Below are positions 3,702-64,000 of a stretch of 64,000 nt of DNA, in pieces. Each line of letters begins with the position of its first letter. Within the stretch, counting starts at the first letter, position 1. This stretch comes from Angustibacter luteus (GTDB lineage Bacteria; Actinomycetota; Actinomycetes; Actinomycetales; Angustibacteraceae). The DNA lies in NCBI RefSeq assembly GCF_039541115.1, contig NZ_BAABFP010000007.1:248001-312000 (forward strand). Reading direction: 5' to 3'. Both the position numbers and the translations under genes were made by a program. The notes below the pieces were generated by a model. That model ran no database searches, was not told the DNA's origin, and saw only the letters and a program-made list of their open reading frames with translations.

Positions 3702-6700
3702 GTGCGTGGCCGGGGGGTGCGAGCGATCTGGGTCCGCTGTGTCGCCGTCGCCTCGCTGGTGGCCGCCGTCACCTTCGTCGCACCGCCGATCGCGGCCGTC
3801 GCGGCCCCCGGGGTCTCGCTCGGCAAGACCGCTAGCGGGCAGGTGCGCGCCGGCGAGCCGATCACCTACACGCTGACCGCGACCAACCCGACGAGCAACC
3901 CCGACGCCACAGTCGAGTACAACCTCAGCTACACCGACGTCCTGCCGGCCGGCGTGACCTACGTGCCCGGTTCGACGAGCGTGAACCGGATCGGCGAACC
4001 GCAGGTGATCAGCGGACCCGGCGCCGGCCAGACCACCCTGGTCTGGGCGAACGTCGCCGACATCGTCGCCGGTGGCTCCTTCACCCTCACCTTCCAGGCG
4101 ACCCCCGACCCCACCCTCTACCCCGTCGGGGCGACCGTGCCGAACCCCGGCGCCAAGCTCTACGCGAACACCGACCCTCAAGAGGCGCCGCGCTTCGACG
4201 CGAGCGGCACCGTCGTCGGCGGCACCTTCACCGAGTCGGCGTCCTCGAACTCGACGGTCACCACCATCTCCGCGCTCGACCTGAGCAAGAGCGAGCCGAG
4301 CCCCGAGGGCGAGCTGCTGCGCGGCGTGCACGACCACCCAACGGTCTACACGCTCACCGCGACCCAGGCCCAGGGTGGCGCCACCAACGGTGCGGTACTG
4401 GTCGACTACCTCCCGGCCAGCCTGGAGTTCCTCGGCTGCGGCGGGGTCGACAACTCCAGCGCCCCGGAGTACGCCGGCGCCCCTTCGTTGACCACGACCC
4501 CGACGCCGGCCGGTTGCGTGAACCCGAGCTCGGTGACCACGGTCCAGAACCCGGCTGGACACCCGGCGGGCATCTACACGCGCGTGCAGTGGAACATCGG
4601 CACCATCGCGGCCGGGGCGACCGTCACCCGCACGTACGCGGCCGGCGTCCCGTTGCACGCCAACGTGATGTGGCCGGCCACCCCACCCACCGGTCTCGGC
4701 CAGGTCGCCAACCTGGACAACAACACCGGCCCGTCCAGCCGGGAGACCACGTCGGAGGCCTCGGCGACGAACACCGCCACCATCACCGGCACGTACGACG
4801 GCCCGGTGGTGGACGGCGGCACGAACGTGGTGGACGTCGACGCCGACGAGAGCGTCAGCATCGAGGACCTGCGGATGCACAAGTCCGTGAGTCCCGGGAC
4901 GTTCAGCGCCGGCAGCATCGCGACGTACACGCTCGTGGTGGACGCCTCGGAGTACGTGAGCGCGGGCTTCCAGATCACCGACACCATCCCGTCCGGGGTC
5001 TGCCCGCTCGGCGGGCCGGGCACCAACTACGGCGGGATCCCGGACTGCGCCGGCAGTGTGGCGACCGCGCCCTCGATCCCGTACGAGAGCGTCACGCCCA
5101 ACCCGGACGGCACCTTCACGGTCGTCTTCGACCCGCAGTCCTTCCCGTCCAAGAACGGCACGCTGACCATCACCTACCAGGGCTTCATGCTCGAGACCTA
5201 CCTGGACGGGCCGCGCGAGGGCGAGCCGACGACCACCGGTGACGAGTTCACCAACACCGCCACGGTCGCCGGGACCACCACCCCGATCGCGAGCACCGGC
5301 GAGACCGGGACCCAGGCCGTCACCGACGAGTCGTCCGCGACCCAGGAGACGAGCGGGCCCTCGATCGACAAGACGATGCTGGCTCGCGCCGACACCACCG
5401 GTGCCTGCCCGACGGACGTGGGTGACTACGGGCACCCGGCCGACCTGCCGCCCGGCTCCACCGACTTCCGGCTCGGCGACCTGGTCTGCTTCGCGCTCGA
5501 GGTGGCTTTCCCCGGCACCTCGGAGACCCGGAACCCCACGGTCGCCGACTTCCTGCCGCCGGGCTTCGAGCTGGTCAACGGCTCGGTGCGGGTGGGCGAC
5601 GGCTCGACCGCTCCGAGCACGTTCAGCACGACGCCGAACTCGGTGATCTGGGAGCTGGGCGCGCCGCCCGGCAACGACCGCTTCGTCGACCAGGGCGCGA
5701 TCTTCCGGGCGGTCCTGCAGGCCCGGGTGACCGACGCCACGGCGCTGCCGGCCGGCGAGGTCCGGCAGAACCAGATGAAGCTCAGCATCGAGGATGCGAA
5801 CGGTGCCAGCGCCACCTTCCGTCGCTCGATCGACGTGACCATCGCCGCGCCGCCGGCCATCGGGCTGGTCAAGGGCGTCGAGTCCGTCGACGTCCCGGCC
5901 AGCGGCCCGAACGCGGCCGGGAGCAACGTGGACGGCTCGCTCGTCGGCGGTGGCTCGGTGGCGACCTTCCGGATCGACCTGACGAACAACGGCGCCGGCG
6001 CGACCGCGGCACCCGCGGGGGCGTTCGACGTCTGGGACGTCCTGCCGGCCGGGATCACCTGCGCCGACGTCGACAACGTGCGCGGCTCACCGGCACCGGC
6101 CGACCCGCTGGTGGTGGCGTGCACCGACCCGGGCGACGGCGCCCACCCCGTGTTCGCCGGGTCCGACGCACTGAGCCTGCTGCGCGTCACCACGGTCCTG
6201 GACCCGGACGGCGCGACCGTGGACGAGCAGGTGCTCGACCCGGGCGAGCGGCTGAGCCTGCTGTACGACGTCACCATTCCGACCCCGGCCGGCGTCTCGC
6301 ACACCTACACGAACACGGCGTACCTGCACAGCTTCCAGGTCCCCACGGACGTCGGCACGGCCGCCACCTACTACCCGCAGGACAACATCGACCCGAGCAT
6401 CCCGGACGCGGACCAGCTCGCCCAGCCGGCCTCGGACCCGTCCAACGTCCGGACGCCGGGGGTCACGGTCGCCAAGACCGGCACGACCTCCATCACCGAG
6501 ACCAACAACAACGCCGCGAACCAGGCCACCGTCGGCGAGACCGTCAGCTACACCTACGCCGCCACGGTTCCGGCGCACACCTCCATCTTCTCGGGCGTGC
6601 TGTCAGACCCCCTGCCTGCCGCGATCGTGATCGTGCCGCCGGCCACGCTGACGTACTTCCCCGACGCCACGTCGCCGACCACCGCCCCGGTCCCGGCCGG

Positions 6701-9700
6701 GGTGACCATCAACCCGGCGACCGGCGAGGTCACCTTCCCGGCGACGTACGAGAACACCACCGGCACGAACCAGCGCTTCGCGGTCACGCTGACCGTGCGG
6801 GTGGACAGCGCCGCCCTCCCGGCGGCGCAGAACAACATCGTCCGCACCAACACCGCCCGGTTCGAGAGCCTGAGCGAGCCCGGCGGGTCCGCGCTGCCGC
6901 CGATCACGGCCAGCTACCCCGTCACGCTGCGCCAGCCCGCCCCGGCCATCACCAAGACCAACAACCTGCCGCTGGCCAACGGCGGCGACACGGTGACCTT
7001 CACCATCACCGCCTCCAACGGGTCGACCAACCGCACGCCCCTGCACGACGCCTTCATCACCGACTGCATCCCGAGCGGTCTGACCTTCCAGGCGTACGGC
7101 CCGTCGCCCGGGCGGACGCCGGTCGGCGGTAGCGGCGCCAACGGCTGTGCCGTAGGCACGACGCTGCTGGTCTGGCAGCTCGACGACCTGGCGCCCGGCG
7201 CGAGTGTCACCCGCACCTACACGGCGAGCGTGCCGCCGAACGCGGTCGGTGGCGTGAAGTACACGAACACCGCGGTGCTCACCGGTAGCAGCCTGGATGA
7301 CAACAAGACCGATCCGCTGGCCGCGGACAACCCGCTCGAGCGCAGCTACGCCGTGAGCGCCAGCTCGAGCGTGACCATCGCCGGCGCCGACCTGGTCAAG
7401 ACGGTCACCCCGGAGCGCGCCCCGGTCGGTGCCACGGTCACCTACACGGTCACGGTGGACCTGCCGCCGAACACGCTGTTCTTCGACGGTGCCCTCGTCG
7501 ACCAGCGGCCGGCGGGTATCGGCAACATCCAGCTGCAGTCGTTCTCCTGCGTGATCCTCTCGACCCCGCAGCAGGCGTGCCCGCAGGTCTTCACGCCCAA
7601 CCCGCTGACGCCGGTGCCGCAACCGGACGGGTCCGTCCTCACCGCGAACCTGATCGGCGACGTCCCCGCCGTGCCCAACGTGCGGCGGTTCACCATCACG
7701 TACACCGGGTTGGTCACGGACGTCCCGGCGAACGTGGCCGGGCGGGTGGCGACCAACACGGCCCACGCGGCCTGGAACACGGTGAACGGGTCCACCCCGA
7801 CCCGGGCGGACAACGCGTGGACCCAGTCCGGGGGGCCGGGGTCGGCGTCCGTGACGGTGCTCGAGCCGAACGTCACGACGACCAAGTCGGTCAGCGACAC
7901 CACGCCGGAGCCGACGGACGTGTTCACCTACACCGTCACCCTGACCAACGCGAACACCGCCACCAGCAGCGCCGCCTACCGCGGCTACATCCGTGACGTC
8001 GTCCCGGTCGGCGTCGTCGTCGACCCGGCCACGATCTCCAACGGTGGCACCATCGCTGGAGCCGATCCGGTCAACGGTGGCGGCACGATCTCCTGGAACG
8101 ACCTCGGCGCCGGACAGCCCCTGGCGCCCGGCGCGTTCCTCGGCCTGACGTACGACGCGAAGCTGGCGCCGTCGACCATCCTGACCGGGGCCGGCCTGAC
8201 GAACACCGCGACGAACCTCGCCTACGACAGCGTGCCGACCGACCCGCACCGCACCTACGCCGGCGGCAGCGCCACCGCCACGGTCACCCCGGACTTCCCG
8301 CGGCTGACCACGACCAAGGCCGCGGTCGACCCGGCGCCGGCGTACCTGGGTGACCCGTTCACCTGGCGCGTCACCGTCACCAACACCGGCGGGGCCACCG
8401 CCTTCGGCGTCGACGTCACGGACCTGCTGCCGGTGGGCTGGACGTACGAGGACGGCACGGCCCGCGTCTCGGTCGCCGGCGGTCCCGCGGTGGCGGAGGA
8501 GCCGGTCACGCTCGGCCGGGTGCTGACCTGGCAGAACGAGGGCACCCTGCAGCCCGGCCAGGCAGTGGTCGTCACCTTCCAGGCGACCCCGGGCTCGTCC
8601 GTGGTCAGCACCCCCGGGGTCGGGTCGACCGTGCCTCAGGTGAACACCGCCAGCGGCGCCGGTGAGGACGCCACCGGGGCGACCGGGAACGCGTCCGGTC
8701 CGTACAGCGCCGGCAGCACGACGGCCCAGACCCGGATCGACTCGGCCGACCTCACGCTCACCAAGACGCATGTCGACCCGGTCGTCGCCGGTGGGCGGGC
8801 CACCTGGCAGGTGACGGTCACCAACGCCGGAGCCGACACGGCGGTCGGGCCGTTCTCGGTGACCGACACCCTGCCGTCCGGCGTGACGTTCTCGTCCGCG
8901 ACCGGCACCGGGTGGTCCTGCAGCCGGTCCGGCGTGACCGTGACCTGCACGCGCACGAACGCGAACGAGACCCTGGCGCCCGGGGCCAGCCTGCCCGTGA
9001 TCACGGTCGTCACCGACGTGGCCGCCGACACCGCGAGCGGCACCACGTTCACGAACGCGGCCACCGCGACCGACCGCACCTACGACCCCGACCTGTCCAA
9101 CAACACCGACACCGACACCGCGACCGTGACCACGCAGGCCGACCTCGCCGTCGCCAAGGCGCACGCCGCCCCGCTGCTCGCCGGCGCGCGGGCGACGTGG
9201 ACCCTGGACGTGACCAACCTGGGCCCGTCGGTCGCGCTGGCACCCGTCACCGTGACCGACACGCTCCCGGCCGGGACGACGTTCGTGTCGGCGGCCGGTA
9301 GCGGCTGGGCGTGCACCGGAGCAGGGACGGCGCTGACCTGCACGCGAGCCGCCGACCTGCCGGTGGGCCCGGCGCCCCAGATCACCGTGCGCGCCGACGT
9401 CGACCCCGACGTGACCGGCACGCTGGAGAACACCGCCCACGTCGAGAGCCCGACCACGGACCCGGTGCCGGGCAACAACACGGACGTCGACCCCGGCGCG
9501 GTCGTCACCCTCGCCAACCTGGCCATCGACAAGTCGCACAACGGGCCGTTCACCGCTGGCAGCAGCAACACCTACCTGTTCACCGTGCACAACGCCGGCC
9601 CGTCCGACGCCGCCGGGCCGGTCACCATCACCGACACCCTGCCCGACGTGCTGACCTACACCGGGTTCACCAGCGTCACCGGCACCTGGGCCTGCTCGGC

Positions 9701-12353
9701 CTCCGGCCAGGACGTCACCTGCACGCTCGCCGCCGGGCTGGCGAACGACGCCGACGCGGCGGTCCGGATCGACGTGGACGTCGCCGCGGACGCCCCGCCC
9801 GAGGCGATCCTGAACACGGCGCACGTGGGCAGCCCCACGACGGACCCGATCCCGGCGAACAACACCGACGACGACAACACGGACGTCGACGTCACCAGCG
9901 ACCTCGCGGTGACCAAGTCGCACACCGGCCCGGCGACCGCAGGTGAGGACTTCAGCTGGCAGGTGGACGTCACCAACAACGGTCCCTCGGACAACCCCGG
10001 CCCGGTCACCGCGTCAGACACGCTGCCGCCCCGCACCAGCTACGTCTCGGCCACCGGCACCGGCTGGGACTGCTCGGCCGTCGGCCGCATCGTGACCTGC
10101 ACCCGGGACGGCGTGCTGGCCGCCGGCGAGGACGCGGCGCCGATCACCATCACCGCCGCGGTGGCCTCGGACGCCGGTCCCACCGTCCTGCTGAACAGCG
10201 TCTCGGTCTCGGGCACCGCGCACGACGACGACCTGTCGAACAACAGCGACTCCGATCCGACCATCGTGCTCAACGACGCCAACGTGTCGATCGCCAAGAC
10301 CCGGCTCGGCCCGGCGACGGTACCGGCCGGATCCACGGTGACCTACGAGCTCGACGTGGCCAACGAGGGCCCGTCGGACGCGGACGGCATCGTCGTCAGC
10401 GACACCGCACCGGCCGGACTGCGGCCCGTGAGCGTGACGCCGCCAACCGGCCAGGGCTGGGACTGCCTCATCACCGGCCAGCTCGTGCGCTGCACCAACG
10501 ACAGCGCACCGGTCGGCGCCAGCGCGACGATCACCGTGGACGCCGTCACCGACCCCAGCGCACCCGATGGCACCACGCTGACGAACACCGCGACCATCGC
10601 GACCTCGACGTCCGGTGACGACCCCGCGGACAACACCGACACGGCGACGGTGACCACCGCCCGAGAGGCCGACCTGCGGCTGACCAAGACGCACGAGCCG
10701 GCGGGGGTCGCCGCAGCCGGGGAGCCGGTCACCTTCCGGATCGCGGTGCGGAACGCCGGGCCGTCCATCGCGGTCGGCACGCTGACCGTCGTCGACACGC
10801 TCCCCGACGGTCTCACCTTCGTCTCGGCCGCGTCGCCCTGGTCGTGCACCGACGCCACGCCCGGCCCGTCCCAGGTGACGTGCACGTACACCCCCGCCGA
10901 GCCGATCCCGCCGAACGGCAACGCGCCCCCGCTGCTGATGACCGTGCAGGTCGACGCCGCCGCGCCCGCCGGGACGTACACCAACGAAGCCACGGTGAGC
11001 GGCGAGGTCGACGACCCGACGCCGAGCAACAACACCGATACCGACGACGTCCCGGTGCAACCGGTGGCCAACGTCAGCGTCACCAAGACGCACACCGGCA
11101 CCGCCCACATCGGCGACGACACCACGTTCCAGATCGCGGCGCACAACGACGGACCCTCGCAGGCCCAGGACGTGGTCGTCACCGATCTTCTGCCGAGCGG
11201 GCTGACCCTGGTCTCGGCCTCGGGTACGGGCTGGACCTGCGCCACGCCGGGGAACTCGGTGCGCTGCGTCCTGGACGACCCGCTCGACCCGACGGCCACC
11301 ACCGAGCCGATCGACGTGGTCACCACCGTCGGTCCGCTGGCCTACCCGTCGGTCGCCAACACCGCCCGGGTCACCACCTCGACCTCCGGCGACGACCCGG
11401 ACGACAACGACGCGGTCGACAGCCTCGCCGTCCCGGCCCAGGTGGACCTGTCGATCCGCAAGGCGCACACCGGTGACTTCGTGGTGGGCGAGCAGGCCAC
11501 CTGGCGGATCCTGGTGCACAACTCCGGCCCGACACCCGACCCCGGCCCGATCGTGGTCGCCGACACGCTGCCGGCGGGCGTCACCTACGTCTCGGGCAGC
11601 GGCAACGGCTGGCGCTGCGCCGCCGTCCGGCAGGCCGTGCGCTGCGTGAACACGGGCGGGTTGGCGATCGACCAGTCCCGGTTGGTGTCGATCAAGGTCA
11701 TGGTCGAGCCGTCCGCCTACCCGGCCGTGGTGAACTCCGCGACGGTCCGCTCGCCGGCGGAGGACCTCGACCCGGCCAACAACACCGACACCGACCCGGC
11801 CGACATCATCCCGGTGTCGCACCTGACCATCGCCAAGGACGTCATCGACCAGGACGGTGGTCGGGTCACCTTCGGCATCGTGGTGACCAACCACGGCCCG
11901 AGCGCCACGACGACGCCGGTCGTGGTCACCGACCCGATGCCGGCCGGGGCGACCCTGGTGGGCTTCACCGGCTCCGGCTGGCAGTGCACGTCGCAGGGCC
12001 AGACTGCGACCTGCACGTACGCCGCACCGCTCGCCTCGGGCGCCAGCACCCCGCGCCTCAGCATCGTGGCCGACCTGGACACCACGGCCCAACCCGTCGT
12101 GAACACCGCGACGGTGACCGGCGGCCAGCCGGACCCGTGCCCGGACTGCGGGGACAGCGACGACGCCAGCGCCTCGAACCCGCCCGCGCTCCTCCCCGAC
12201 CAGGCCGGGTCCGGGCTGCCGCGCACCGGCGCCAACGTCGGTCTCACCGTGCAGGCGGCGTTGGTCCTGCTCGGCTGCGGGTTCGTGATGGTGGCCGGGA
12301 CCCGGCGTCGTCGGCCTGCAAAGGCGGTGTCGTCCCGGCACCGGAGGCCGTAG
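3702..12353 (+). CDS. Giant (2883 aa) sortase-anchored surface protein with tandem DUF11/isopeptide-type Ig-like repeats
   Basis: Signal peptide; about 19 repeats of K...YT/W.(V/I)TN.G...D.LP.G..; C-terminal LPRTG + hydrophobic helix + RRRR. Confidence 0.9.
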   Translation: MRGRGVRAIWVRCVAVASLVAAVTFVAPPIAAVAAPGVSLGKTASGQVRAGEPITYTLTATNPTSNPDATVEYNLSYTDVLPAGVTYVPGSTSVNRIGEPQVISGPGAGQTTLVWANVADIVAGGSFTLTFQATPDPTLYPVGATVPNPGAKLYANTDPQEAPRFDASGTVVGGTFTESASSNSTVTTISALDLSKSEPSPEGELLRGVHDHPTVYTLTATQAQGGATNGAVLVDYLPASLEFLGCGGVDNSSAPEYAGAPSLTTTPTPAGCVNPSSVTTVQNPAGHPAGIYTRVQWNIGTIAAGATVTRTYAAGVPLHANVMWPATPPTGLGQVANLDNNTGPSSRETTSEASATNTATITGTYDGPVVDGGTNVVDVDADESVSIEDLRMHKSVSPGTFSAGSIATYTLVVDASEYVSAGFQITDTIPSGVCPLGGPGTNYGGIPDCAGSVATAPSIPYESVTPNPDGTFTVVFDPQSFPSKNGTLTITYQGFMLETYLDGPREGEPTTTGDEFTNTATVAGTTTPIASTGETGTQAVTDESSATQETSGPSIDKTMLARADTTGACPTDVGDYGHPADLPPGSTDFRLGDLVCFALEVAFPGTSETRNPTVADFLPPGFELVNGSVRVGDGSTAPSTFSTTPNSVIWELGAPPGNDRFVDQGAIFRAVLQARVTDATALPAGEVRQNQMKLSIEDANGASATFRRSIDVTIAAPPAIGLVKGVESVDVPASGPNAAGSNVDGSLVGGGSVATFRIDLTNNGAGATAAPAGAFDVWDVLPAGITCADVDNVRGSPAPADPLVVACTDPGDGAHPVFAGSDALSLLRVTTVLDPDGATVDEQVLDPGERLSLLYDVTIPTPAGVSHTYTNTAYLHSFQVPTDVGTAATYYPQDNIDPSIPDADQLAQPASDPSNVRTPGVTVAKTGTTSITETNNNAANQATVGETVSYTYAATVPAHTSIFSGVLSDPLPAAIVIVPPATLTYFPDATSPTTAPVPAGVTINPATGEVTFPATYENTTGTNQRFAVTLTVRVDSAALPAAQNNIVRTNTARFESLSEPGGSALPPITASYPVTLRQPAPAITKTNNLPLANGGDTVTFTITASNGSTNRTPLHDAFITDCIPSGLTFQAYGPSPGRTPVGGSGANGCAVGTTLLVWQLDDLAPGASVTRTYTASVPPNAVGGVKYTNTAVLTGSSLDDNKTDPLAADNPLERSYAVSASSSVTIAGADLVKTVTPERAPVGATVTYTVTVDLPPNTLFFDGALVDQRPAGIGNIQLQSFSCVILSTPQQACPQVFTPNPLTPVPQPDGSVLTANLIGDVPAVPNVRRFTITYTGLVTDVPANVAGRVATNTAHAAWNTVNGSTPTRADNAWTQSGGPGSASVTVLEPNVTTTKSVSDTTPEPTDVFTYTVTLTNANTATSSAAYRGYIRDVVPVGVVVDPATISNGGTIAGADPVNGGGTISWNDLGAGQPLAPGAFLGLTYDAKLAPSTILTGAGLTNTATNLAYDSVPTDPHRTYAGGSATATVTPDFPRLTTTKAAVDPAPAYLGDPFTWRVTVTNTGGATAFGVDVTDLLPVGWTYEDGTARVSVAGGPAVAEEPVTLGRVLTWQNEGTLQPGQAVVVTFQATPGSSVVSTPGVGSTVPQVNTASGAGEDATGATGNASGPYSAGSTTAQTRIDSADLTLTKTHVDPVVAGGRATWQVTVTNAGADTAVGPFSVTDTLPSGVTFSSATGTGWSCSRSGVTVTCTRTNANETLAPGASLPVITVVTDVAADTASGTTFTNAATATDRTYDPDLSNNTDTDTATVTTQADLAVAKAHAAPLLAGARATWTLDVTNLGPSVALAPVTVTDTLPAGTTFVSAAGSGWACTGAGTALTCTRAADLPVGPAPQITVRADVDPDVTGTLENTAHVESPTTDPVPGNNTDVDPGAVVTLANLAIDKSHNGPFTAGSSNTYLFTVHNAGPSDAAGPVTITDTLPDVLTYTGFTSVTGTWACSASGQDVTCTLAAGLANDADAAVRIDVDVAADAPPEAILNTAHVGSPTTDPIPANNTDDDNTDVDVTSDLAVTKSHTGPATAGEDFSWQVDVTNNGPSDNPGPVTASDTLPPRTSYVSATGTGWDCSAVGRIVTCTRDGVLAAGEDAAPITITAAVASDAGPTVLLNSVSVSGTAHDDDLSNNSDSDPTIVLNDANVSIAKTRLGPATVPAGSTVTYELDVANEGPSDADGIVVSDTAPAGLRPVSVTPPTGQGWDCLITGQLVRCTNDSAPVGASATITVDAVTDPSAPDGTTLTNTATIATSTSGDDPADNTDTATVTTAREADLRLTKTHEPAGVAAAGEPVTFRIAVRNAGPSIAVGTLTVVDTLPDGLTFVSAASPWSCTDATPGPSQVTCTYTPAEPIPPNGNAPPLLMTVQVDAAAPAGTYTNEATVSGEVDDPTPSNNTDTDDVPVQPVANVSVTKTHTGTAHIGDDTTFQIAAHNDGPSQAQDVVVTDLLPSGLTLVSASGTGWTCATPGNSVRCVLDDPLDPTATTEPIDVVTTVGPLAYPSVANTARVTTSTSGDDPDDNDAVDSLAVPAQVDLSIRKAHTGDFVVGEQATWRILVHNSGPTPDPGPIVVADTLPAGVTYVSGSGNGWRCAAVRQAVRCVNTGGLAIDQSRLVSIKVMVEPSAYPAVVNSATVRSPAEDLDPANNTDTDPADIIPVSHLTIAKDVIDQDGGRVTFGIVVTNHGPSATTTPVVVTDPMPAGATLVGFTGSGWQCTSQGQTATCTYAAPLASGASTPRLSIVADLDTTAQPVVNTATVTGGQPDPCPDCGDSDDASASNPPALLPDQAGSGLPRTGANVGLTVQAALVLLGCGFVMVAGTRRRRPAKAVSSRHRRP

Positions 12354-30932: not shown

Positions 30933-30978
30933 GATCGTGGCAACCTCGCATCGCCGGTGATGCGGTGTTGCCACGATC
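30933..30978. repeat. 46-bp GATC-bounded palindromic repeat, copy 1 (solitary)
   Basis: gatcgtggcaacctcgcatc-gccggt-gatgcggtgttgccacgatc. Confidence 0.92.
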
Positions 30979-35379: not shown

Positions 35380-35449
35380 TTCCGCCACCCAGTCCGCTTT
35401 CCGCCACCCAGGCCGGTTTCCCGCGAGGAGAACCGGCCTGAGTGGCGGA
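35380..35449. repeat. Long imperfect hairpin with partial direct repeat (terminator or second REP-like family)
   Basis: tccgccacccaggccggtt (35400-18) / aaccggcctgagtggcgga (35431-49); ttccgccacccag at both 35380 and 35399. Confidence 0.65.
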
Positions 35450-50655: not shown

Positions 50656-50946
50656 GTGGTCACGTCGCCGGTCGAGCTGGACGAGCCGCGGTCGGCCGAG
50701 GAGGTCGATGTCGCGAGCCCGTGGGTCACCCTCGTCTGGAACGACCCGGTCAACCTGATGTCCTACGTGACGTACGTCTTCCAGTCCTACTTCGGCTACA
50801 GCAGGGCCAAGGCCGAGTCGCTGATGCTGGACGTGCACCAGAAGGGCCGGGCCGCCGTGGCGCACGGGGACCGCGAGGGCATGGAGCGGCACGTCGAGGC
50901 GCTGCAGGGGTACGGGCTGTGGGCGACCATGCAGAAGGACGACTAG
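50656..50946 (+). CDS. clpS: ATP-dependent Clp protease adaptor ClpS
   Basis: [28 protein letters not shown]. Confidence 0.93.
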
Positions 50947-51578
50947 TGGCACGAGGCTTCAAACGGTCCAGGCGGGGCATCCGGGCGCGGCTGGACGACG
51001 GTGAGCGCGGGCTGCTCGCGCACCTGTTCGTCGAGGTGCACGAGATGCTGGACGACGAGACCTCCGCGGACGACGACCCGCTGGCGGTCCTGGTCGGCAT
51101 CGGCACTGCCGTCGACCTGCCCGGCGACCCCGCCGTGGCGCGGTTGCTGCCGGACGCCCACCGCGACGACCCGGACGCCTCCGCCGAGTTCCGCCGCTAC
51201 ACCGAGGCCGGGCTGCGCGAGCGCAAGCGGACCGGGCTGGAGGTCGCGCGCCGCAGCCTCGGCCGCGACGGAGCCACCCTGGTGCTGGACGAGGACGAGG
51301 CGCAGGCCTGGGTGGTGGCGCTGACCGACGTCCGGCTGGTGCTGGCCTCGCGGATGGGCCTGGAGGTCGACGAGGACCACGAACGGCTCGAGGCGCTCGC
51401 CGCCGCCGAGCTGGCTGCCGAGGCGCAAGGCGTGCCGGCGCAGGACGGGGACGGTGACGGTGATGGTGACGTGCCGCCGTCCAGCGGGCTCGCCTGGGTG
51501 CTCGCGGTCTACGACTTCCTCACCTGGCTGCAGGAGAGCCTGGTCGAGGCCCTGCTCGAACCCCTGCCGCACGACTGA
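50946..51578 (+). CDS. DUF2017 family (AosR-like) protein
   Basis: DPAVARLLPDA, EFRRYTE..L, W..ALTDVRLVL, VYDFLTWLQESLV; follows clpS. Confidence 0.88.
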   Translation: MARGFKRSRRGIRARLDDGERGLLAHLFVEVHEMLDDETSADDDPLAVLVGIGTAVDLPGDPAVARLLPDAHRDDPDASAEFRRYTEAGLRERKRTGLEVARRSLGRDGATLVLDEDEAQAWVVALTDVRLVLASRMGLEVDEDHERLEALAAAELAAEAQGVPAQDGDGDGDGDVPPSSGLAWVLAVYDFLTWLQESLVEALLEPLPHD

Positions 51579-51605: not shown

Positions 51606-51651
51606 GATCGTGGCAACCGCGCATCGCGGGTGATGCGAGGGTGCCACGATC
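51606..51651. repeat. 46-bp GATC-bounded palindromic repeat, copy 2 (overlaps the stop codon of the AbiEi/DUF559-like gene)
   Basis: gatcgtggcaaccgcgcatc-gcgggt-gatgcgagggtgccacgatc. Confidence 0.92.
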
Positions 51652-52612
51652 ACGCCGGTTGCGCGGCCCTGACGAGGCACGTCGACGAGCACGGCCTGAG
51701 CCGTCCCGTCCAGCCCCGGCGGCGGAGCACCGCGGCGACCTCCAGCGCGGTCGAGCAGCTGGCACCGGCGACGGCCGGCCAGCCGTACCGCAAGGTGGCA
51801 TCGCCGTGCAGCGTCGCGGCGTTGTCGCGCCCGTGGTCGCGGTGGCTGCCGTCGGCGGGGTGGTAGGCCAGCCCCTCCAGCTCGACCCGCGTCCGCCACC
51901 GGCGATACCGCACGTCCGCGTAGCGGTTGACGCCCCGCACCACCTGCCGGCTGTTCCGCTCGCTCGGCGGCAGGCCGTGCGCCCGTTCGACGTCGCGGAC
52001 GTAGCGTCGCTCGAGAGCCGAGGCCACCCCCGCCCGGACGTCGTCGAGCACCTCGCGCACGAGCTGGCGGTGGCGCAGGCGGGACCGCCGGGCTGCCGCA
52101 GCGCCCAGGCGGGCCGGAGTGGTCAGACGACGTTGGCAGGCTCGGGTCAACCAGCCGACGACGGCGTCCGGCCTGCCGACCAGCTCGGTCAGGTCGAGCA
52201 CGGTGTCCTCAACCGTCGTCACCGGTATCGAGCCCGCGGCGCTGGCGATGCTCGCGAACCGACGGCGCCGCCGGATGCGCAGCCCGTCCTGCCGGGTGGT
52301 CCGGTGCGGTGCGAAGACGCACACCTCGACGAGCTCGGGTTCGTCGTCCACGAGGCCCTGCAGGTAGGCCGCCGTGCGGTGGCTCGCCACGGCTGGCGTC
52401 CCGGCGTGCAGCAGGCCGGCCCAGACCCGGCTCCGAAAGGTGACCGGTCCGGTGTGCGTGACATACACGCCGGGGAACACCCGGCGCCAGCGGGCACTGC
52501 GCAGCTGGTGGCCGATCCAGCCCCGACCGAGACCGGCTCCGACCGCCTGAGCGTGCGACACCACGCCGTGCTGCTGCTCGACCAGGTCGTCCAGCAGGCT
52601 CGGTGAAGGCAC
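51650..52612 (-). CDS. AbiEi-like wHTH domain + DUF559/Vsr-like PD-(D/E)xK nuclease domain protein
   Basis: QQHGVVS..Q....GL...I...L....W.RVFPGVY; ASHRTAA.L.GL; TT.EDTVLDL; S.LE; YADVRY...VELEG.AYH...RD..RDN.....G...LRYGW. Confidence 0.8.
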   Translation of the reverse strand: MPSPSLLDDLVEQQHGVVSHAQAVGAGLGRGWIGHQLRSARWRRVFPGVYVTHTGPVTFRSRVWAGLLHAGTPAVASHRTAAYLQGLVDDEPELVEVCVFAPHRTTRQDGLRIRRRRRFASIASAAGSIPVTTVEDTVLDLTELVGRPDAVVGWLTRACQRRLTTPARLGAAAARRSRLRHRQLVREVLDDVRAGVASALERRYVRDVERAHGLPPSERNSRQVVRGVNRYADVRYRRWRTRVELEGLAYHPADGSHRDHGRDNAATLHGDATLRYGWPAVAGASCSTALEVAAVLRRRGWTGRLRPCSSTCLVRAAQPA

Positions 52613-52678
52613 CGCCCAAGCCTGCCGGTTTGCCGGCCGACCCTCCCTGGTTCATCCACAGGCCCGGGCACGGAACCC

Positions 52679-52724
52679 GATCGTGGCAACGTCGCATCGC
52701 CGGTGGTGCGACGTTGCCACGATC
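52679..52724. repeat. 46-bp GATC-bounded palindromic repeat, copy 3 (upstream of the AbiEi/DUF559-like gene)
   Basis: gatcgtggcaacgtcgcatc-gccggt-ggtgcgacgttgccacgatc; stem extends with accc/gggt. Confidence 0.92.
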
Positions 52725-52806: not shown

Positions 52807-53610
52807 GTGGCAGACGCTCCCATCGGCATCTTCGACTCCGGCTACGGCGGCCTCACGGTCGCGCGCGCCGTCCTCGACCAGCTGCCGCACGAGCCGGTCC
52901 TCTACATGGGCGACACGGCCCGTCAGCCCTACGGTCCGCGGCCGATCGCCCAGGTGCGCGAGTACGCCATCGAGTGCCTGGACCAGCTCGTCGACCAGGG
53001 CGTGAAGCTGCTGGTCATCGCCTGCAACAGTGCGAGCGCGGCCGTCCTCGGCGACGCCCGGGAGCGGTACGGCGTCCCGGTCGTCGAGGTCATCCGGCCG
53101 GCCGTGCGGCGGGCGGCGGCGGCCACCCGGAACCGCCACGTCGGGGTCATCTGCACCCAGGCCACGAAGACCTCGGGCGCGTACGAGGACGCCTTCGCGG
53201 CGGCACCGCACCTGCGGGTCACCACCCAGGCCTGCCCGCGCTTCGTGGACTTCGTCGAGGACGGCGTGACCAGCGGGCCCGAGCTGCTCGCCGCCGCGCA
53301 CGAGTACCTCGACCCGGTAGTGGCCGCCGGCGTGGACACGCTGATCCTCGGCTGCACGCACTACCCGCTGCTGACGGGCGTCATCTCCTACGTCGTCGGC
53401 GACCTGGTGACCCTGGTGAGCAGCGCGGAGGAGACGGCGAAGGACGTCTACCGCCAGCTCGTCGAGCACGACCTGGTCCGCCCGGACGGCCTGCCCGCAC
53501 CGCAGCACCGGTTCGAGACCACCGGGGACCCCAAGGCGTTCGCCGAGCTCGGACGACGCTTCCTGGGTCCCGAGGTCTCGCCGGCCCAGCTGGTGGGGGA
53601 CGCCCGATGA
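52807..53610 (+). CDS. murI: Glutamate racemase
   Basis: [33 protein letters not shown]. Confidence 0.97.
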
Positions 53611-55905: not shown

Positions 55906-57537
55906 GTGAACGACAGCTCGAGCGGGACGGCCACGACGACGGCGCGACCGGCGACACAGCCGACGGGACGGCCGACCATCTGGTGGCCGGCGCTGGCCGG
56001 CATCGTCGCGGGCGCGCTCACGGTCTCGGTCGCGGAGCTGCTCGCGGCCCTGCTGGTGCGGTCCGGGCACAGCCAGGGCACGCCGTCCCCGGTCGTGGCC
56101 CTCGGCCAGGCGTTCATCGACCGCACCCCGCTGTGGCTCAAGAACCTCGCGGTCTCGACGTTCGGCACGCACGACAAGCAGGCGCTACTCACGGGCATCG
56201 CCGCGGTCGTGGTGGTGGTCGCGGCGGTGGCCGGGATCGTCGCCGCCCGGCACCGGGTGGCCGGCCTGCTGGTCGTGGTGGCGATGGCCGCCGTCGCCGG
56301 GTTCGCCGTGCTCAGCCGACCGAAGTCGTCCGGCACCGACCTGTTCCCGCTCGTGATCGGCACCGTGGTCGGACTGTTCGCCCTCAGCAAGCTGCTCGAC
56401 CGCTGGGCGCGGAGCGACCTGGCCCGAGCCGACGATCCCGCCGACACCCCCAGCACGCGCATCGACGGCGACCTGGCCCGGCGCTCCTTCCTGCGGGCGC
56501 TGGCCGGCGGCGGCGCGTTCGCCGTGCTGGCCGGGGTGGGCGCCCAGGTGATCGCGCACGCCAGTCGCGCCGTCCAGGCCAGCCGGGCGGCCCTCGCGCT
56601 CCCGGCGCCGACCGGCGCCACCCCCACCCCGGCCCAGCTGGCCGGTCTCGACGTGCCCGGACTGAGCCCTATGGTCACCCCGCCCGAGGACTTCTACCGG
56701 ATCGACACCGCGCTCTCGGTGCCCCAGCTGTCCACCCAGGACTGGCACCTGCGCGTGCACGGCATGGTGGAGCACGAGATCCGGATGACGTTCGCGGACC
56801 TGCTCGCGCTGCCGATGATCGAGCGCCAGACCACGCTGACCTGCGTGTCCAACGAGGTGGGCGGCGACCTGATCGGCAACCAGGTCTGGCTCGGCCACCC
56901 GATCCGGGAGCTGCTGGCCCGCGCCCAGCCGACCCAGGACGCCGACATGGTGCTGTCCACCAGCATCGACGGCTTCACCGCGGGCACCCCGCTGGAGGCG
57001 CTCACGGACGACCACCGGGACGCACTGCTGGCCGTGGCCATGGGCGGCGAGCCGTTGCCGGTCGAGCACGGCTTCCCGGTGCGCATGGTGGTGCCGGGGC
57101 TGTACGGGTACGTGTCCGCGACCAAGTGGGTCGTCGACCTGGAGGTCACCCGGTTCGACCAGGCCGAGGGCTACTGGACGCCGCGCGGCTGGAGCGCCTT
57201 GGGCCCGATCAAGACCGGGTCGCGGATCGACGTCCCACGCGGCAAGGCGAAGGCCGGCAAGGTCGCGGTGGCCGGGGTCGCCTGGGCGCAGCACCGTGGG
57301 ATCGAGCGGGTCGAGGTGCGGGTCGACGAGGGCGCCTGGGCACCGGCCCGGCTGGGCGACGGTGGCACCGCGGACACCTGGAAGCAGTGGGTCTACGAGT
57401 GGGACGCCAGCCCCGGCAAGCACACCCTGCAGGTGCGGGCCACGGACGCCCAGGACGACGTCCAGACCGGCGACGAGGCCACCCCGGCCCCGAACGGCGC
57501 CACGGGCTGGCACACCGTCAGCGTCACCATCACCTGA
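55906..57537 (+). CDS. Membrane-anchored molybdopterin oxidoreductase, sulfite oxidase family (paralog 1)
   Basis: N-terminal TMs, internal RRSFL, FYRIDTAL, LTCVSNEVGG, HGFPVRMVVPGLYGYVSATKW, GYW..RGW. Confidence 0.9.
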   Translation: MNDSSSGTATTTARPATQPTGRPTIWWPALAGIVAGALTVSVAELLAALLVRSGHSQGTPSPVVALGQAFIDRTPLWLKNLAVSTFGTHDKQALLTGIAAVVVVVAAVAGIVAARHRVAGLLVVVAMAAVAGFAVLSRPKSSGTDLFPLVIGTVVGLFALSKLLDRWARSDLARADDPADTPSTRIDGDLARRSFLRALAGGGAFAVLAGVGAQVIAHASRAVQASRAALALPAPTGATPTPAQLAGLDVPGLSPMVTPPEDFYRIDTALSVPQLSTQDWHLRVHGMVEHEIRMTFADLLALPMIERQTTLTCVSNEVGGDLIGNQVWLGHPIRELLARAQPTQDADMVLSTSIDGFTAGTPLEALTDDHRDALLAVAMGGEPLPVEHGFPVRMVVPGLYGYVSATKWVVDLEVTRFDQAEGYWTPRGWSALGPIKTGSRIDVPRGKAKAGKVAVAGVAWAQHRGIERVEVRVDEGAWAPARLGDGGTADTWKQWVYEWDASPGKHTLQVRATDAQDDVQTGDEATPAPNGATGWHTVSVTIT

Positions 57538-57620
57538 CCGGGGACGTATCCAGCGGCTCGTCCGCGCGCTCTTCCTAGGGGATGCCGCCTACTCCGGGCG
57601 GCGACCTGGGGGGAATCACC

Positions 57621-59747
57621 ATGACTGAGAACTCTGGACGACCCGACGACTCGGGCGACGTGGTGCTCACCGCCTCGCGGTGGCAGTTCCGGCAGCTGAT
57701 CACGGCCAACCCGAACCACTTCGGCACGTTCCCGGACCTGCCGTTCGAGGTCGTCGAGCCGATGCAGGGCAACACGGCGTACGAGGAGGTCCAGTGCGTC
57801 TCGTACAGCCCGACGCGGGACCGCATCGAGGCGACCATCAACGTCAAGCAGACGTTCGGCTACTCCGGCGGACCGTGCACCAGCGGCTCCTTCGAGCACC
57901 TGCGGTTCTACGTCGACTACGGCAGCGGCTGGGAGGACGCCGGTCCCGCCGCCATCAAGGTGCACGACTTCGCGGCCGGCCGGGACTGTCCGGGTGACCC
58001 GCTGCACCCGATCAGCTACGTCGCCAGTGTCAAGCACACGCCCCACCGCCGCTGGTGCGGCACCCCGGTGCTGCCACGGGTGCGGGTCATCCTGTCCTGG
58101 AACCTGCCGCCGACGCCCGGTGACCCGGACTTCCCGCCGGTCTGGGGCGACGTCCACGAGTGCCACGTGCAGATCGCGCCGCGCCGGTTCTTCTTCGGCG
58201 ACATCATCCAGTACATCCCGTCCAAGGTGCTGGACACGTTGCCCGCCAAGGTGATCGAGCAGACGCCGATCCCGCACCCGGACCCCGACCCGGGCCCGCT
58301 GATGGACCTGGCCGAGCTCACCACGCGCTACCGCCAGGACGACGTGCCGGCGCACCGGTTCGCGTTCCCGCAGCTGATGGCGCTCAGCGACACCGCCGGG
58401 GTCGGCGGCCAGGCGCTGGCCAGCTCCGCCCTGGTCGCCCAGGCCTCGAAGCTGAACCTCAGCGAGATCCTGAAGCAGCTCGAGGACACCAAGGGCGACG
58501 TCGACTTCGAGGAGCTCGAGTGCCTCGGTCTCGACGAGGGGATCTCGTCGCTGGTGGCGACGTTCAACGTCAAGAAGAACAGCGGCTACTCCGGGGGCCC
58601 GTGCACCGCGGGCAGCAAGGAGTACGTCGCGTTCTGGGCGGACTGGGACGACGACTGCCGGTACACCTACCTCGGCACCGTCGAGGTCGTCGTGCACGAC
58701 TACGACCTGCCCGACGGAGGCCTGTGCTACGCCGCCATCCAGCCGATCGACCTGGGTGCGCTGCGCCGTCCGTGCGACAAGCCGCGGATCAACCGGGTGC
58801 GCGCCGTGCTGTCCTGGGGGAGCCCGCCGTCCACCACCGATCCGGACAAGCTCCCCACCTGGGGCAACCGGATCGACCGGCACGTGCAGGTCGAGCCCGG
58901 CCCGACGTACGACGGCACCGCGCACTTCACCATCGTCGGCGGCGTGGCCGCGAACAAGGTCAACCTGATCACCGGGCTGACCGACCCGGGCGCCACGCTG
59001 GGCACGTCGACGGTGCCGCTGAACCCGCCGCTGTGCCCGTTCGCGGGCCAGGTGACCCTGCAGGGGCCGAACGACCCGACGCTCGCCGGGCACCAGTACC
59101 GGATCAAGGCGACCAACCTCGGCGGCGGCGGCTTCCACTACCTGGACACCGCGTTCGGTGTCGTGGACAGCAACGGCAACCCCGGCACGGTGACGCCGAC
59201 GCCGGGCACCGGGTGGGCGCCCTGGCCGACGTGGACGAGCAACACCGAGGGCTTCCTCGGCGTGCACACCCCGGGCGGCAACGACCAGTGGGACTACACG
59301 CTCGAGCTGGACGTCGCCGGCAACACCGTCGACACCGCGCGGGTGCAGCTGGACAACCTGGTGCGCAACGAGGTCGACGCGCTGGACACCGTCAACGCCG
59401 GTGACCTGTGGCTCGACACCGCGGGGGCCTGCAAGGTGCCCAAGGCCGAGCTGAACGCCCGGTTCGTGGCGCGGGACCTGCACTTCTCGAGCTGGTCGCT
59501 CTCGCTGCTCGGCGGCCCTGGCGGCAACCCGCCGCAGCCGCCGCTGCACCTGCCCGGCAACCTGCCGATGCTCCCGACGTCGTCCCAGACGCCGTTGTCC
59601 GGCACCGACTTCACGATCGACCTGACGGACCCGATGCTCGCCCCGTGCGGGTACGTCGTGCGGCTGACGATCGTGGACCGGGCCATCGTGAACAGCGTGA
59701 CGCAGGGGCAGCACGCGACGATCGACCGCGGGATCTGCCTGGAGTAG
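57621..59747 (+). CDS. Uncharacterised 708-aa protein with an internally duplicated Cys-containing domain
   Basis: Two copies of EE..C.......ATxNVK..GYSGGPCT.GS.E...F..D.....VHD...RVR..LSW..PP...P.WG...HVQ. Confidence 0.8.
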   Translation: MTENSGRPDDSGDVVLTASRWQFRQLITANPNHFGTFPDLPFEVVEPMQGNTAYEEVQCVSYSPTRDRIEATINVKQTFGYSGGPCTSGSFEHLRFYVDYGSGWEDAGPAAIKVHDFAAGRDCPGDPLHPISYVASVKHTPHRRWCGTPVLPRVRVILSWNLPPTPGDPDFPPVWGDVHECHVQIAPRRFFFGDIIQYIPSKVLDTLPAKVIEQTPIPHPDPDPGPLMDLAELTTRYRQDDVPAHRFAFPQLMALSDTAGVGGQALASSALVAQASKLNLSEILKQLEDTKGDVDFEELECLGLDEGISSLVATFNVKKNSGYSGGPCTAGSKEYVAFWADWDDDCRYTYLGTVEVVVHDYDLPDGGLCYAAIQPIDLGALRRPCDKPRINRVRAVLSWGSPPSTTDPDKLPTWGNRIDRHVQVEPGPTYDGTAHFTIVGGVAANKVNLITGLTDPGATLGTSTVPLNPPLCPFAGQVTLQGPNDPTLAGHQYRIKATNLGGGGFHYLDTAFGVVDSNGNPGTVTPTPGTGWAPWPTWTSNTEGFLGVHTPGGNDQWDYTLELDVAGNTVDTARVQLDNLVRNEVDALDTVNAGDLWLDTAGACKVPKAELNARFVARDLHFSSWSLSLLGGPGGNPPQPPLHLPGNLPMLPTSSQTPLSGTDFTIDLTDPMLAPCGYVVRLTIVDRAIVNSVTQGQHATIDRGICLE

Positions 59748-59762: not shown

Positions 59763-59808
59763 GATCGTGGCAACCTCGCATCACCGGCGATGCGAGGTTG
59801 CCACGATC
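59763..59808. repeat. 46-bp GATC-bounded palindromic repeat, copy 4 (solitary, perfect 20-bp arms)
   Basis: gatcgtggcaacctcgcatc-accggc-gatgcgaggttgccacgatc. Confidence 0.92.
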
Positions 59809-62509: not shown

Positions 62510-64000
62510 ATGACTGCGACCCAGACCGCGCCGCCCGCACCAGCCGCCGAGCGAACCCACCCCCGCTGGTGGGCTGCCGCGCTGTCCGGCCTGGTCGCCG
62601 GCGCGGTGACCGTCGGGCTCGCCGAGCTGCTGGCGGCGGTGCTCACCGTGACCGGGCTGGCCGGGGGCCAGCCCAGCCCCGTGATCTCCGTCGGTGACGC
62701 CTTCGTGGACCGCACGCCCGGCCCGCTCAAGGACTTCGCCGTCCGGACCTTCGGCGAGAACGACAAGCTCGTCCTGCTCGGGTCCATCGGCCTCGTGCTG
62801 GTCGTGCTGGCGCTCGCCGCCGGTATCGCCGCCGGGCGACGCCTGGTGGTCGGCCTGGGCCTGGTGCTGCTGCTCGGTCTGGTGGCCGTGGGCGCGATCA
62901 TGACCCGACCCTCGGCGTCCCCGCTGGACGTGGTCCCCACCGTGATCGGCACGGCGGCCGGGCTGTGGACGCTGCGCTGGCTGATCGAGCGCGCCACCCC
63001 GACCACCTCGGACGACGGCTCCGCGGCCGGGTGGAGCCGGCGCACGTTCCTCGGCAGCGCCGGGGCGGCGGGCGCCGCGGCCGTGGTGGCCGGCGGGGCC
63101 GGGCACGTGCTGGAGTCCAGCCTCGGCAGCGTCGAGGACTCGCGGGCCAAGGTCCGGCTGCCCAAGGCGGCCGAGCCCGTCACCGTGCCGAAGGACGTCC
63201 AGCTGCCGATCAAGGGGATCACCCCGTGGCAGACGGACCCGGCGACGTTCTACCGGGTCGACACCGCCCTGCGCCTGCCGCAGATCACCACCGAGGAGTG
63301 GTCGCTGAAGGTGCACGGCAAGGTCGGCAAGGAGCTGACCATCGACTACCGGACCCTGGTGGCCAAGCCGCTGGTGGAGCGGCTGATCACGCTCACCTGC
63401 GTGTCGAACGAGGTGGGCGGCAAGCTGCTCGGCAACGCCGTCTGGCTGGGCTACCCGGTCAAGGACCTGCTGGCCGACCTCGAGGTCGACCCCGGCGCGG
63501 ACATGGTGCTGTCGACCTCGCAGGACGGCATGACCATCTCGACGCCGCTGGAGAACCTGACCAAGAACCGCGACGCGCTGCTCGCCGTCGCGATGAACGG
63601 CGAGCCGCTCCCCGTCCAGCACGGCTTCCCGGTGCGGATGGTCGTGCCCGGGCTGTACGGCTACGTGTCGGCCACCAAGTGGGTCACCGACCTGAAGGTG
63701 ACCCGGTTCGCCGACGACGAGGCGTACTGGACGCCGCGCGGCTACTCCGCCAAGGCGCCGATCAAGTTCTCGTCGCGCATCGACGTGCCGAAGGGCTTCG
63801 CCCAGCTGAAGGCCGGCAAGAACGCGATCGCCGGGGTCGCCTGGGCGCAGGCCGTCGGGGTCGCCAAGGTGCAGGTCCGGGTGGACCGCGGATCCTGGCA
63901 GGACGCCCGGCTCGCTGGCGCGCCCAGCAAGAACACCTGGGTGCAGTGGGTCTACGAGTGGGATGCCGAGCCCGGCAGCCACACCCTCGAGTGCCGCCTG
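62510..64000 (+). CDS. Membrane-anchored molybdopterin oxidoreductase, sulfite oxidase family (paralog 2); truncated by the window end
   Basis: Manual translation MTATQTAPP...; SRRTFL, FYRVDTAL, LTCVSNEVGG, HGFPVRMVVPGLYGYVSATKW. Confidence 0.9.
   Translation, partial: MTATQTAPPAPAAERTHPRWWAAALSGLVAGAVTVGLAELLAAVLTVTGLAGGQPSPVISVGDAFVDRTPGPLKDFAVRTFGENDKLVLLGSIGLVLVVLALAAGIAAGRRLVVGLGLVLLLGLVAVGAIMTRPSASPLDVVPTVIGTAAGLWTLRWLIERATPTTSDDGSAAGWSRRTFLGSAGAAGAAAVVAGGAGHVLESSLGSVEDSRAKVRLPKAAEPVTVPKDVQLPIKGITPWQTDPATFYRVDTALRLPQITTEEWSLKVHGKVGKELTIDYRTLVAKPLVERLITLTCVSNEVGGKLLGNAVWLGYPVKDLLADLEVDPGADMVLSTSQDGMTISTPLENLTKNRDALLAVAMNGEPLPVQHGFPVRMVVPGLYGYVSATKWVTDLKVTRFADDEAYWTPRGYSAKAPIKFSSRIDVPKGFAQLKAGKNAIAGVAWAQAVGVAKVQVRVDRGSWQDARLAGAPSKNTWVQWVYEWDAEPGSHTLECRL

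Follow-up and report, generated by a model that had tools for sequence, protein, structure and literature searches.

A palindrome-bracketed AbiEi-Vsr-like nuclease gene in Angustibacter luteus: candidate for a REP/RAYT-like system with an unrelated enzyme

Introduction

To our knowledge, RAYT, an HUH transposase, is the only enzyme so far known to maintain REP-type repeats. In REPtrons and TIRtrons a single-copy enzyme gene lies between cognate palindromes that occur dispersed in extragenic DNA as well, and RAYTs occupy the same locus within a lineage, are mostly vertically inherited, are absent from plasmids and occur as several types per genome; Actinobacteria are not named in the main text of either report (bioRxiv 10.1101/2021.07.10.451892; PMC3733652). 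S. agalactiae AbiEi binds an operator consisting of two 23-bp inverted repeats, 3 bp apart, in autoregulation (PMC3985639). The nuclease I-Bth0305I carries the EDxHD residues E170, D196, H213 and D222 and acts as a dimer on a pseudopalindromic target (PMC3239194), and DUF559 has been grouped with Vsr and the intron homing endonucleases in an account that, as far as its accessible text goes, names no link to repeats (PMC3424549).

Here, a gene encoding an AbiEi module fused to a Vsr-like nuclease is bracketed by a 46-bp palindrome that also occurs alone elsewhere in the genome. The pairing of such nuclease genes with palindromes of their own is real, general and undescribed in the literature searched, which lay largely outside subscription journals and comprised main texts rather than supplements; neither a description of this system nor a paper combining AbiEi and DUF559 was found there.

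Results

Layout of the cassette and its neighbourhood

The window (the whole stretch of A. luteus DNA analyzed, 64,000 nucleotides) carries on its minus strand a gene for a 320-aa protein, an AbiEi module joined to a nuclease of the Vsr/DUF559/EDxHD type (51650..52612; GTG start, TGA stop). One 46-bp palindrome, made of two half-sites of ~23 bp, lies downstream and overlaps the TGA stop by 2 bases (51606..51651), and another lies 66 bp 5' of the GTG, outside the presumed core promoter (52679..52724). Between the upstream palindrome and the start are a DnaA-box-like 9-mer, TCATCCACA (52652..52660, plus strand), which accompanies the gene when the cassette inverts, and a -10-like hexamer, CAGGCT, read by eye 6 nt 5' of the GTG (52619..52624, minus strand). 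The flanking host genes, both on the plus strand and both identified by Pfam, are DUF2017 on the left (50946..51578) and murI on the right (52807..53610), the latter directly following DUF2017 in relatives that lack the cassette. The gene order clpS-DUF2017 ... murI-MBL-rph-rdgB reported in a preliminary description of this DNA is upheld, the remaining genes being recognized by sequence and by conserved order in relatives (the clpS call had no Pfam match).

Solitary copies of the palindrome occur in a tandem gap, 19 bp past a stop codon (30933..30978), and between convergent stop codons, 15 bp past a stop codon (59763..59808), with 84-89% identity. The bracketing of the gene and the solitary copies behind stop codons had been described before, and all coordinates were confirmed. 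In the related genome G002 the orthologous site of the first copy (L183) holds that genome's own variant, and a near-identical counterpart of the second is present in G003 (L172), where synteny is broken on the right side of the copy.

Other features of the window were also recorded. Solitary copies of two further palindrome families, f3 and the orphan f5, lie at 35401-35448 and ~62396, the cognate gene of f3 being located at C8:333620 of this genome (G000). A large gene with repeats of ~375-400 bp, for a repeat-domain surface protein, occupies 3800-12050. Stretches at 56799-57428 and 63355-63987 are 72-82% identical; the former is inside a gene named by eye as molybdopterin-oxidoreductase-like, a paralogue of which probably starts near the window end. 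A 721-aa Cys/Pro/Gly-rich protein is encoded at 57582-59747, and synteny with G003 breaks at the palindrome right after it.

An AbiEi module fused to a Vsr-like nuclease domain

Pfam matches of the 320-aa protein are AbiEi_1 and AbiEi_4. The label AbiEi/DUF559-like given to it previously holds in part: the nuclease assignment is supported by fold search and by the paralogues, but the protein itself has no DUF559 Pfam match. Its predicted structure (pLDDT 89.5) splits into two parts. Residues 1-193, comprising a wHTH and a C-terminal domain, align with S. agalactiae AbiEi (6y8q; Z 12.6, rmsd 4.1, 183 residues aligned), and residues ~190-301 match NGO0050 (Z 12.0), I-Bth0305I (Z 11.5, rmsd 2.8 A over 97 residues) and Vsr (Z 9.5). 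The HUH fold is absent among the 50 structure matches listed, which by itself excludes nothing; the model is accounted for by the AbiEi domain (1-193) and the Vsr-like domain (192-301), not by HUH/Y1. PADLOC AbiEi models match all eight paralogues of this genome, and NCBIfam has no family for any of the eight.

Residues E201, D233, E244 and D259 are kept in all 112 homologues surveyed below and H251 in 110 of them, the motifs YADV and VELEG corresponding to residues 231-234 and 243-247. Also, the C-terminal cysteines C286, C308 and C312 are kept in ~109 of the 112 and possibly form a metal site. Values of dN/dS between 0.12 and 0.48 in 12 pairs, with dS near saturation, suggest that the gene is under purifying selection. 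The reported lack of an AbiEii partner extends from the cassette, whose neighbours are DUF2017 and murI, to the whole genome, in which the AbiEii profile (PF08843) gave no match; the same profile matched in 3 of 14 controls.

Anatomy and placement of the palindrome

Counted over the genome, as had been proposed, the palindrome proves to be a dispersed repeat, with 19 copies in 4.16 Mb at a threshold of at least 38 matching positions of 46 and 20 copies at a threshold of at least 33, noise climbing only at 30 or fewer. Its arms differ by 1-4 mismatches, and all four copies in the window fold better than 200 out of 200 shuffles (z -7.2 to -9.9). Across the 38 half-sites, positions 4-10, 12, 16, 17 and 20 are invariant and positions 13-14 and 21-23 variable. 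Symmetric non-consensus positions number 8 against 6.4 expected (p 0.26), and arm-to-arm correction, or selection for pairing, finds no support in the 46-bp family since symmetric changes do not exceed chance. The conservation pattern resembles that of paired double-stranded protein-binding half-sites and not that of a hairpin stem, and the term cognate hairpin used previously calls for revision.

No target duplication of 3 bp or more was detected at the 46-bp ends of any of the 19 copies, nor at one clean indel. The 15 bases flanking these copies are C-rich on the left (133 C, 81 G) and G-rich on the right (159 G, 66 C), and the true repeat unit may include these tails. With all families pooled and our own gene calls, 204 of 214 copies fall outside called ORFs; repeats fill 71 of 189 convergent gaps (38%), 98 of 974 tandem gaps and 15 of 456 divergent gaps, and the median distance between copy and stop codon is 17-25 bp in the main families. 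Given this occupancy of convergent gaps, the sharing of sites between families is partly saturation and may not reflect targeting.

Eight paralogues, nearly all bracketed by a repeat of their own

The genome contains about ten hairpin families and eight full-length paralogues of the gene. Six of the eight have a palindrome on either side, every gene with a different dispersed family of roughly 19-68 copies (BLAST counts that include some weak matches). The seventh, A2, is 50% identical to the 320-aa protein gene and has one downstream copy, belonging to a sub-family of the 46-bp repeat, and the eighth has 55-bp inverted arms. Related genomes harbor 8-12 paralogues each, every one with its own dispersed family, and the gene is present in one copy per type per genome. 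The idea that each clade carries its own flanking repeat is borne out.

At C5:866008-866475 of G000 there is also a ninth paralogue, disrupted by a stop codon and deletions and preceded by a palindrome; G001, G002, G003 and G005 have intact orthologues of it that lack a downstream copy. Separately, three pairs of same-family palindromes in G000 bracket ordinary genes (C2:363304-364655, C7:536462-537713 and C4:36757-37789), named by eye as YihY-like, asd and acid-phosphatase-like; these pairs could be composite units.

Three orphan families in G000 have no detected gene, namely f5/11/12 (37 half-sites), f8 (17) and f7 (10). They match their own consensus at 0.84-0.88, as well as the gene-linked families do (0.78-0.98), and the idea that they are decaying is not supported. 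Their undecayed persistence argues against a strict dependence of repeat on gene and realizes in part one of the refuting conditions named in the preliminary description.

Repeat abundance and presence of the cognate gene

The 46-bp family pattern occurs 24 times in G000, 39 in G006, 21 in G007, 19 in G011, 12 in G003 and 10 each in G002 and G008 (controls 0-4), and 8 and 5 times in G014 and G012 (controls 1). Genomes without the gene at the locus have 0 (G010), 7 (G009) and 2 copies (G013), with controls at 0, 12 and 3. The gene of G006 is broken, yet its count is the highest. G001, G004 and G005 carry their own variants of the repeat.

For family f0, 99, 99 and 50 half-sites were recovered from G002, G004 and G005, where the gene is present, an outcome predicted beforehand, and 5 and 1 from G001 and G003, where the f0 gene was not found. 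The o267 repeat has 19, 3 and 1 copies in those three genomes that possess its cognate gene and is missing from 12 others. The presence test for f7 had a mixed outcome, and G003 keeps ~5 A2-type copies without the A2 gene. The repeat follows the gene in the case of f0 and o267, abundant only together with the cognate gene, but not in that of f5/11/12, f8 and f7, for which no gene was detected in G000.

Distribution of the family and frequency of bracketing

At E<=1e-25 the protein family was detected in 157 of the 201 genomes sampled from the class, a tally that takes in one unpublished genome, G063, used nowhere else. A single-protein GTDB scan yielded no relatives and a closer alignment did yield them; among the named relatives recovered from GTDB, the top two are Angustibacter records with 66% and 53% identity. 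No match was found among 72,556 plasmids and no relative in IMG/VR; a search of 50,697 phages gave one partial match.

Bracketing was scored in 112 homologues (full-length, distinct and with flanks, out of 139 loci), a matched flank pair being defined by an upstream/downstream repeat score of at least 20. Such pairs enclose 55 of the 112 homologues. By comparison, they enclose 1 of the 276 other genes at these loci and 2 of 699 genes drawn at random from G000, one of these itself a paralogue; the counts are not independent given that the surveyed genomes are related. As the preliminary description would predict, homologues are flanked by palindromes more often than random genes. Two replicates gave 13 bracketed loci among 38 usable metagenome loci (of 80) and 56 bracketed genes among 68 paralogues from eight related genomes.

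The remaining 57 homologues have no matched pair, many having an upstream hairpin only, and their active site is equally conserved. Overall, upstream hairpins are found at 61 of the 112 homologues and downstream hairpins at 46. Loci with an upstream hairpin or short array and no matching downstream copy include L107, L119, L124, L131, L134, L135, L155, L156, L170 and similar ones, many of them from Streptosporangiaceae bins; they possibly represent an operator-only state.

Promoter region and DnaA-box-like motif

CAGGCT is probably the -10 element of a leaderless promoter; by eye, xANNNT occurs at the same spacing in all eight paralogues and CANNNT in seven of them. A 9-mer ending in TCCACA lies, in either orientation, between upstream palindrome and start in 71 of 112 homologues against 87 of 3517 genes; among paralogues it was counted in 65 of 68, and among metagenome loci in 39 of 62. 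Its commonest forms are TTGTCCACA, TCGTCCACA and TTATCCACA, the first of which Streptomyces and Mycobacterium use as their high-affinity DnaA box (PMC4285127). The same 9-mer is found upstream of dnaA (C4:235638 in G000), and its core occurs 7 times within 400 bp between dnaA and dnaN against 0.18 per kb genome-wide. The gene may be under DnaA control.

Elsewhere in G000 (C8:187650-187824, L225), seven TGTGGA motifs are clustered in 175 bp behind groEL and beside a WXG100-like gene. This cluster was considered as oriC and rejected, as it sits behind groEL and far from dnaA.

The DUF2017-murI locus in relatives

In 12 of the 30 loci examined, spread over the genus, most of its family and a further family, DUF2017 is immediately followed by the gene, which in most cases precedes murI. 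Well-supported pairs are the same in the gene tree and the host tree. Groupings of G001 and of G002 that would be consistent with the host tree are rejected (p-AU 0.011 and 0.023), a long branch being involved, and given this conflict the genes of both genomes may be replacements by a related cassette. The cassette at this locus appears to be mostly vertically inherited. For the gene, the earlier designation as a selfish element is too strong, considering its mostly vertical inheritance, fixed locus, apparent purifying selection and lack of matches on plasmids.

Three of the 12 DUF2017-adjacent genes are in the opposite orientation. The genes of G000 and G003 are sisters (99/96) that face opposite ways between collinear outer flanks, and a single clade for the three same-orientation genes is rejected (p 6e-10). 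Since the gene, the promoter motif and the inner edge are inverted and the outer flank remains collinear, the breakpoints of the cassette inversion are placed at the palindromes. Reversed orientation is also seen at the f2 and f4 loci of G004. At a further locus, L203 (G008:C181, 6155-7812), murI and MBL are inverted as a block beside the upstream palindrome of the cassette, with no copy detected at the other breakpoint.

The two flanking palindromes are 86% alike within a locus against 56% between species, and in 15 of 22 flanks the closest copy proved to be the partner from the same cassette, the 7 exceptions falling inside two sister pairs. This pattern indicates that the flanking palindromes evolve in concert. 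Clean excision of the cassette was looked for at DUF2017-murI and not seen; loss at this locus was by decay, G012 holding a decayed remnant, G014 an internal deletion and G006 a gene in three pieces.

Movement and turnover

Other cassettes have changed place. The f0 cassette (71% identical) lies after clpX in G002, G004 and G005 but in G000 has a P450 gene and a Rieske gene as neighbours, and the A2 site is empty in G001, G004 and G005. At a site occupied by palindrome-gene-palindrome in G003 and G004, G000 has a solo f7 palindrome, and it shows clean, empty sites in place of several other cassettes; the empty sites sought in the comparison of relatives do exist.

Between G004 and G005, which are 88-92% identical, 15 sites were aligned, including one cassette flank and one false match. 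They comprise a single clean presence/absence difference of 87 bp, located between convergent stops, lacking a target duplication and bearing tails that are C-rich on the left and G-rich on the right, one equal-length swap of different hairpins, one partial loss and several changes in array size. When 19 solitary G004 sites were mapped to G000 by eye, 10 were empty, 7 held another family and 2 held the same lineage (the other 19 of 38 two-sided rows were dropped, 18 as coding-sequence noise and 1 as a gene flank).

Discussion

We consider, with a probability of about 0.6, that these genes and repeats form a system of the REP/RAYT kind whose enzyme is unrelated to RAYT and recognizes half-sites in double-stranded DNA, and that this two-part system is widespread in actinobacteria. 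Its parts are likely a chromosomal AbiEi-Vsr gene, in single copy per type, and cognate palindromes of 45-60 bp that flank the gene and lie behind stop codons. A coupling between gene and repeat is, in itself, quite probable. The outcomes read from genome comparison are pairing, concerted evolution of flanks, gain, loss and replacement of copies, inversion and rare relocation, and the protein would be the agent that spreads the repeat.

The chemistry of cutting and copying can be proposed tentatively, at somewhat less than even odds. Like its S. agalactiae counterpart, the AbiEi module would bind the ~23-bp half-sites one by one as duplex DNA, bringing two EDxHD domains to the site, where they would nick or cut. 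Repair of the break by the host, with another copy as template, would homogenize the repeat family, would write repeats into hairpin-tolerant 3' gaps, overwriting other families, and would occasionally invert, delete or move the bracketed gene. DnaA, in turn, could time or limit expression of the gene with replication. An extended form of this proposal, which falls just short of an even chance, sees class-wide, undescribed intragenomic replicators in which a DnaA-timed enzyme, a fusion of the operator-binding module of an antitoxin with a homing-type Vsr nuclease, copies its own operator by break and repair; 8-12 systems per genome would compete for the same 3' gaps and overwrite one another there, creating hotspots of inversion and rearrangement, and each would be a naturally evolved protein-DNA specificity pair.

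Several observations could also be accommodated by a host regulator or repair nuclease with passive repeats. The upstream palindrome would then be no more than the AbiEi operator, copies of which came to serve as terminators or mRNA stabilisers and were spread by ordinary host recombination, the enzyme having no catalytic role. AbiEi does autoregulate through such repeats (PMC3985639), upstream hairpins are commoner than downstream ones, copies lie close behind stop codons and orphan families persist. However, the upstream copy occupies the interval 67-112 bp 5' of the start and so does not reach into the presumed core promoter, and this explanation leaves unaccounted for the 8-12 paralogues per genome with their own dispersed families, the 20- to 100-fold difference in f0 copies with presence of the gene and the fast turnover between close species; we regard it as unlikely. 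Still less probable is an autonomous IS-like transposon with palindromic ends, whose MITE-like derivatives or excision scars would be the solitary copies. The relocation of f0, the insertion of A2 at a site empty in three relatives, the solo f7 copy at a former cassette site and the departure of the gene tree from the host tree for G001 and G002 would suit it, but the gene is held at one copy per type per genome and at the same locus over the family and one further family, target duplications were not found at the copies inspected, and the plasmid and IMG/VR searches were negative, with the single partial match among phages. A one-protein abortive-infection or suicide system, with AbiEi repressing the nuclease until phage or replication stress frees it to cut palindromes, would draw on the AbiEi ancestry and PADLOC matches, the conserved nuclease and the DnaA-type box. 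The loci, though, are housekeeping gaps and not defence islands, no AbiEii was found in the genome, and suicide requires neither a concerted, family-specific turnover of repeats nor a downstream flank; this is the most improbable of the explanations considered.

If the REP/RAYT-like reading with an unrelated enzyme is true, a second caretaker exists and the REP-like arrangement arose at least twice. It would also account for much of the intergenic hairpin content of actinobacterial genomes, as in the convergent gaps counted here, and would give a role to the very large 'AbiEi antitoxin/DUF559' family, whose members are annotated as orphan antitoxins. One genome with eight gene-repeat pairs makes specificity and function directly testable as a matrix of cognate and non-cognate combinations, and a large natural set of site-specific nucleases with half-sites of 20 bp or more could serve as tools.

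Comparison with known systems

Insertion sequences with their MITEs are expected to be multi-copy and to leave target-site duplications, and neither was observed here. With the type IV AbiE toxin-antitoxin systems the protein shares the full AbiEi fold over residues 1-193, and the S. agalactiae operator is close to the 46-mer in its geometry of inverted repeats (PMC3985639), but the upstream repeat here lies 67-112 bp from the start. Moreover, there is here no AbiEii, a nuclease is fused to the module, a second operator-like copy lies downstream and ~18 copies are dispersed; lacking a toxin, this is not an AbiE toxin-antitoxin pair. Likeness to I-Bth0305I (PMC3239194) comprises the catalytic fold, the spacing of E201-D233-H251-D259 relative to E170-D196-H213-D222 and an N-terminal DNA-binding part. 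In contrast to that enzyme, the gene is chromosomal and not of phage, is a free-standing ORF between two intact host genes and not in an intron or intein, and encodes an AbiEi module in place of NUMOD motifs. Also, a homing endonuclease cuts the allele that lacks it, whereas this gene is surrounded by its presumed binding sites; being free-standing and among its own presumed sites, it is not a homing endonuclease in the usual sense.

The nearest described system is that of REP and RAYT, to which the present one does not belong, as its enzyme is not an HUH transposase. An AbiEi-Vsr/EDxHD fusion takes the place of the HUH/Y1 transposase, the conserved positions suit half-sites read as duplex DNA, symmetric changes being in no excess, the repeat ends are mostly GATC/TGATCA and not GTAG/CGTC, and the gene inverts, sometimes moves and carries a DnaA-box-like motif. 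What both have in common is flanking cognate palindromes, extragenic dispersal, a single copy per type and, apart from the relocation of f0 and A2 and the tree conflict of G001 and G002, a fixed locus with vertical inheritance, off plasmids.
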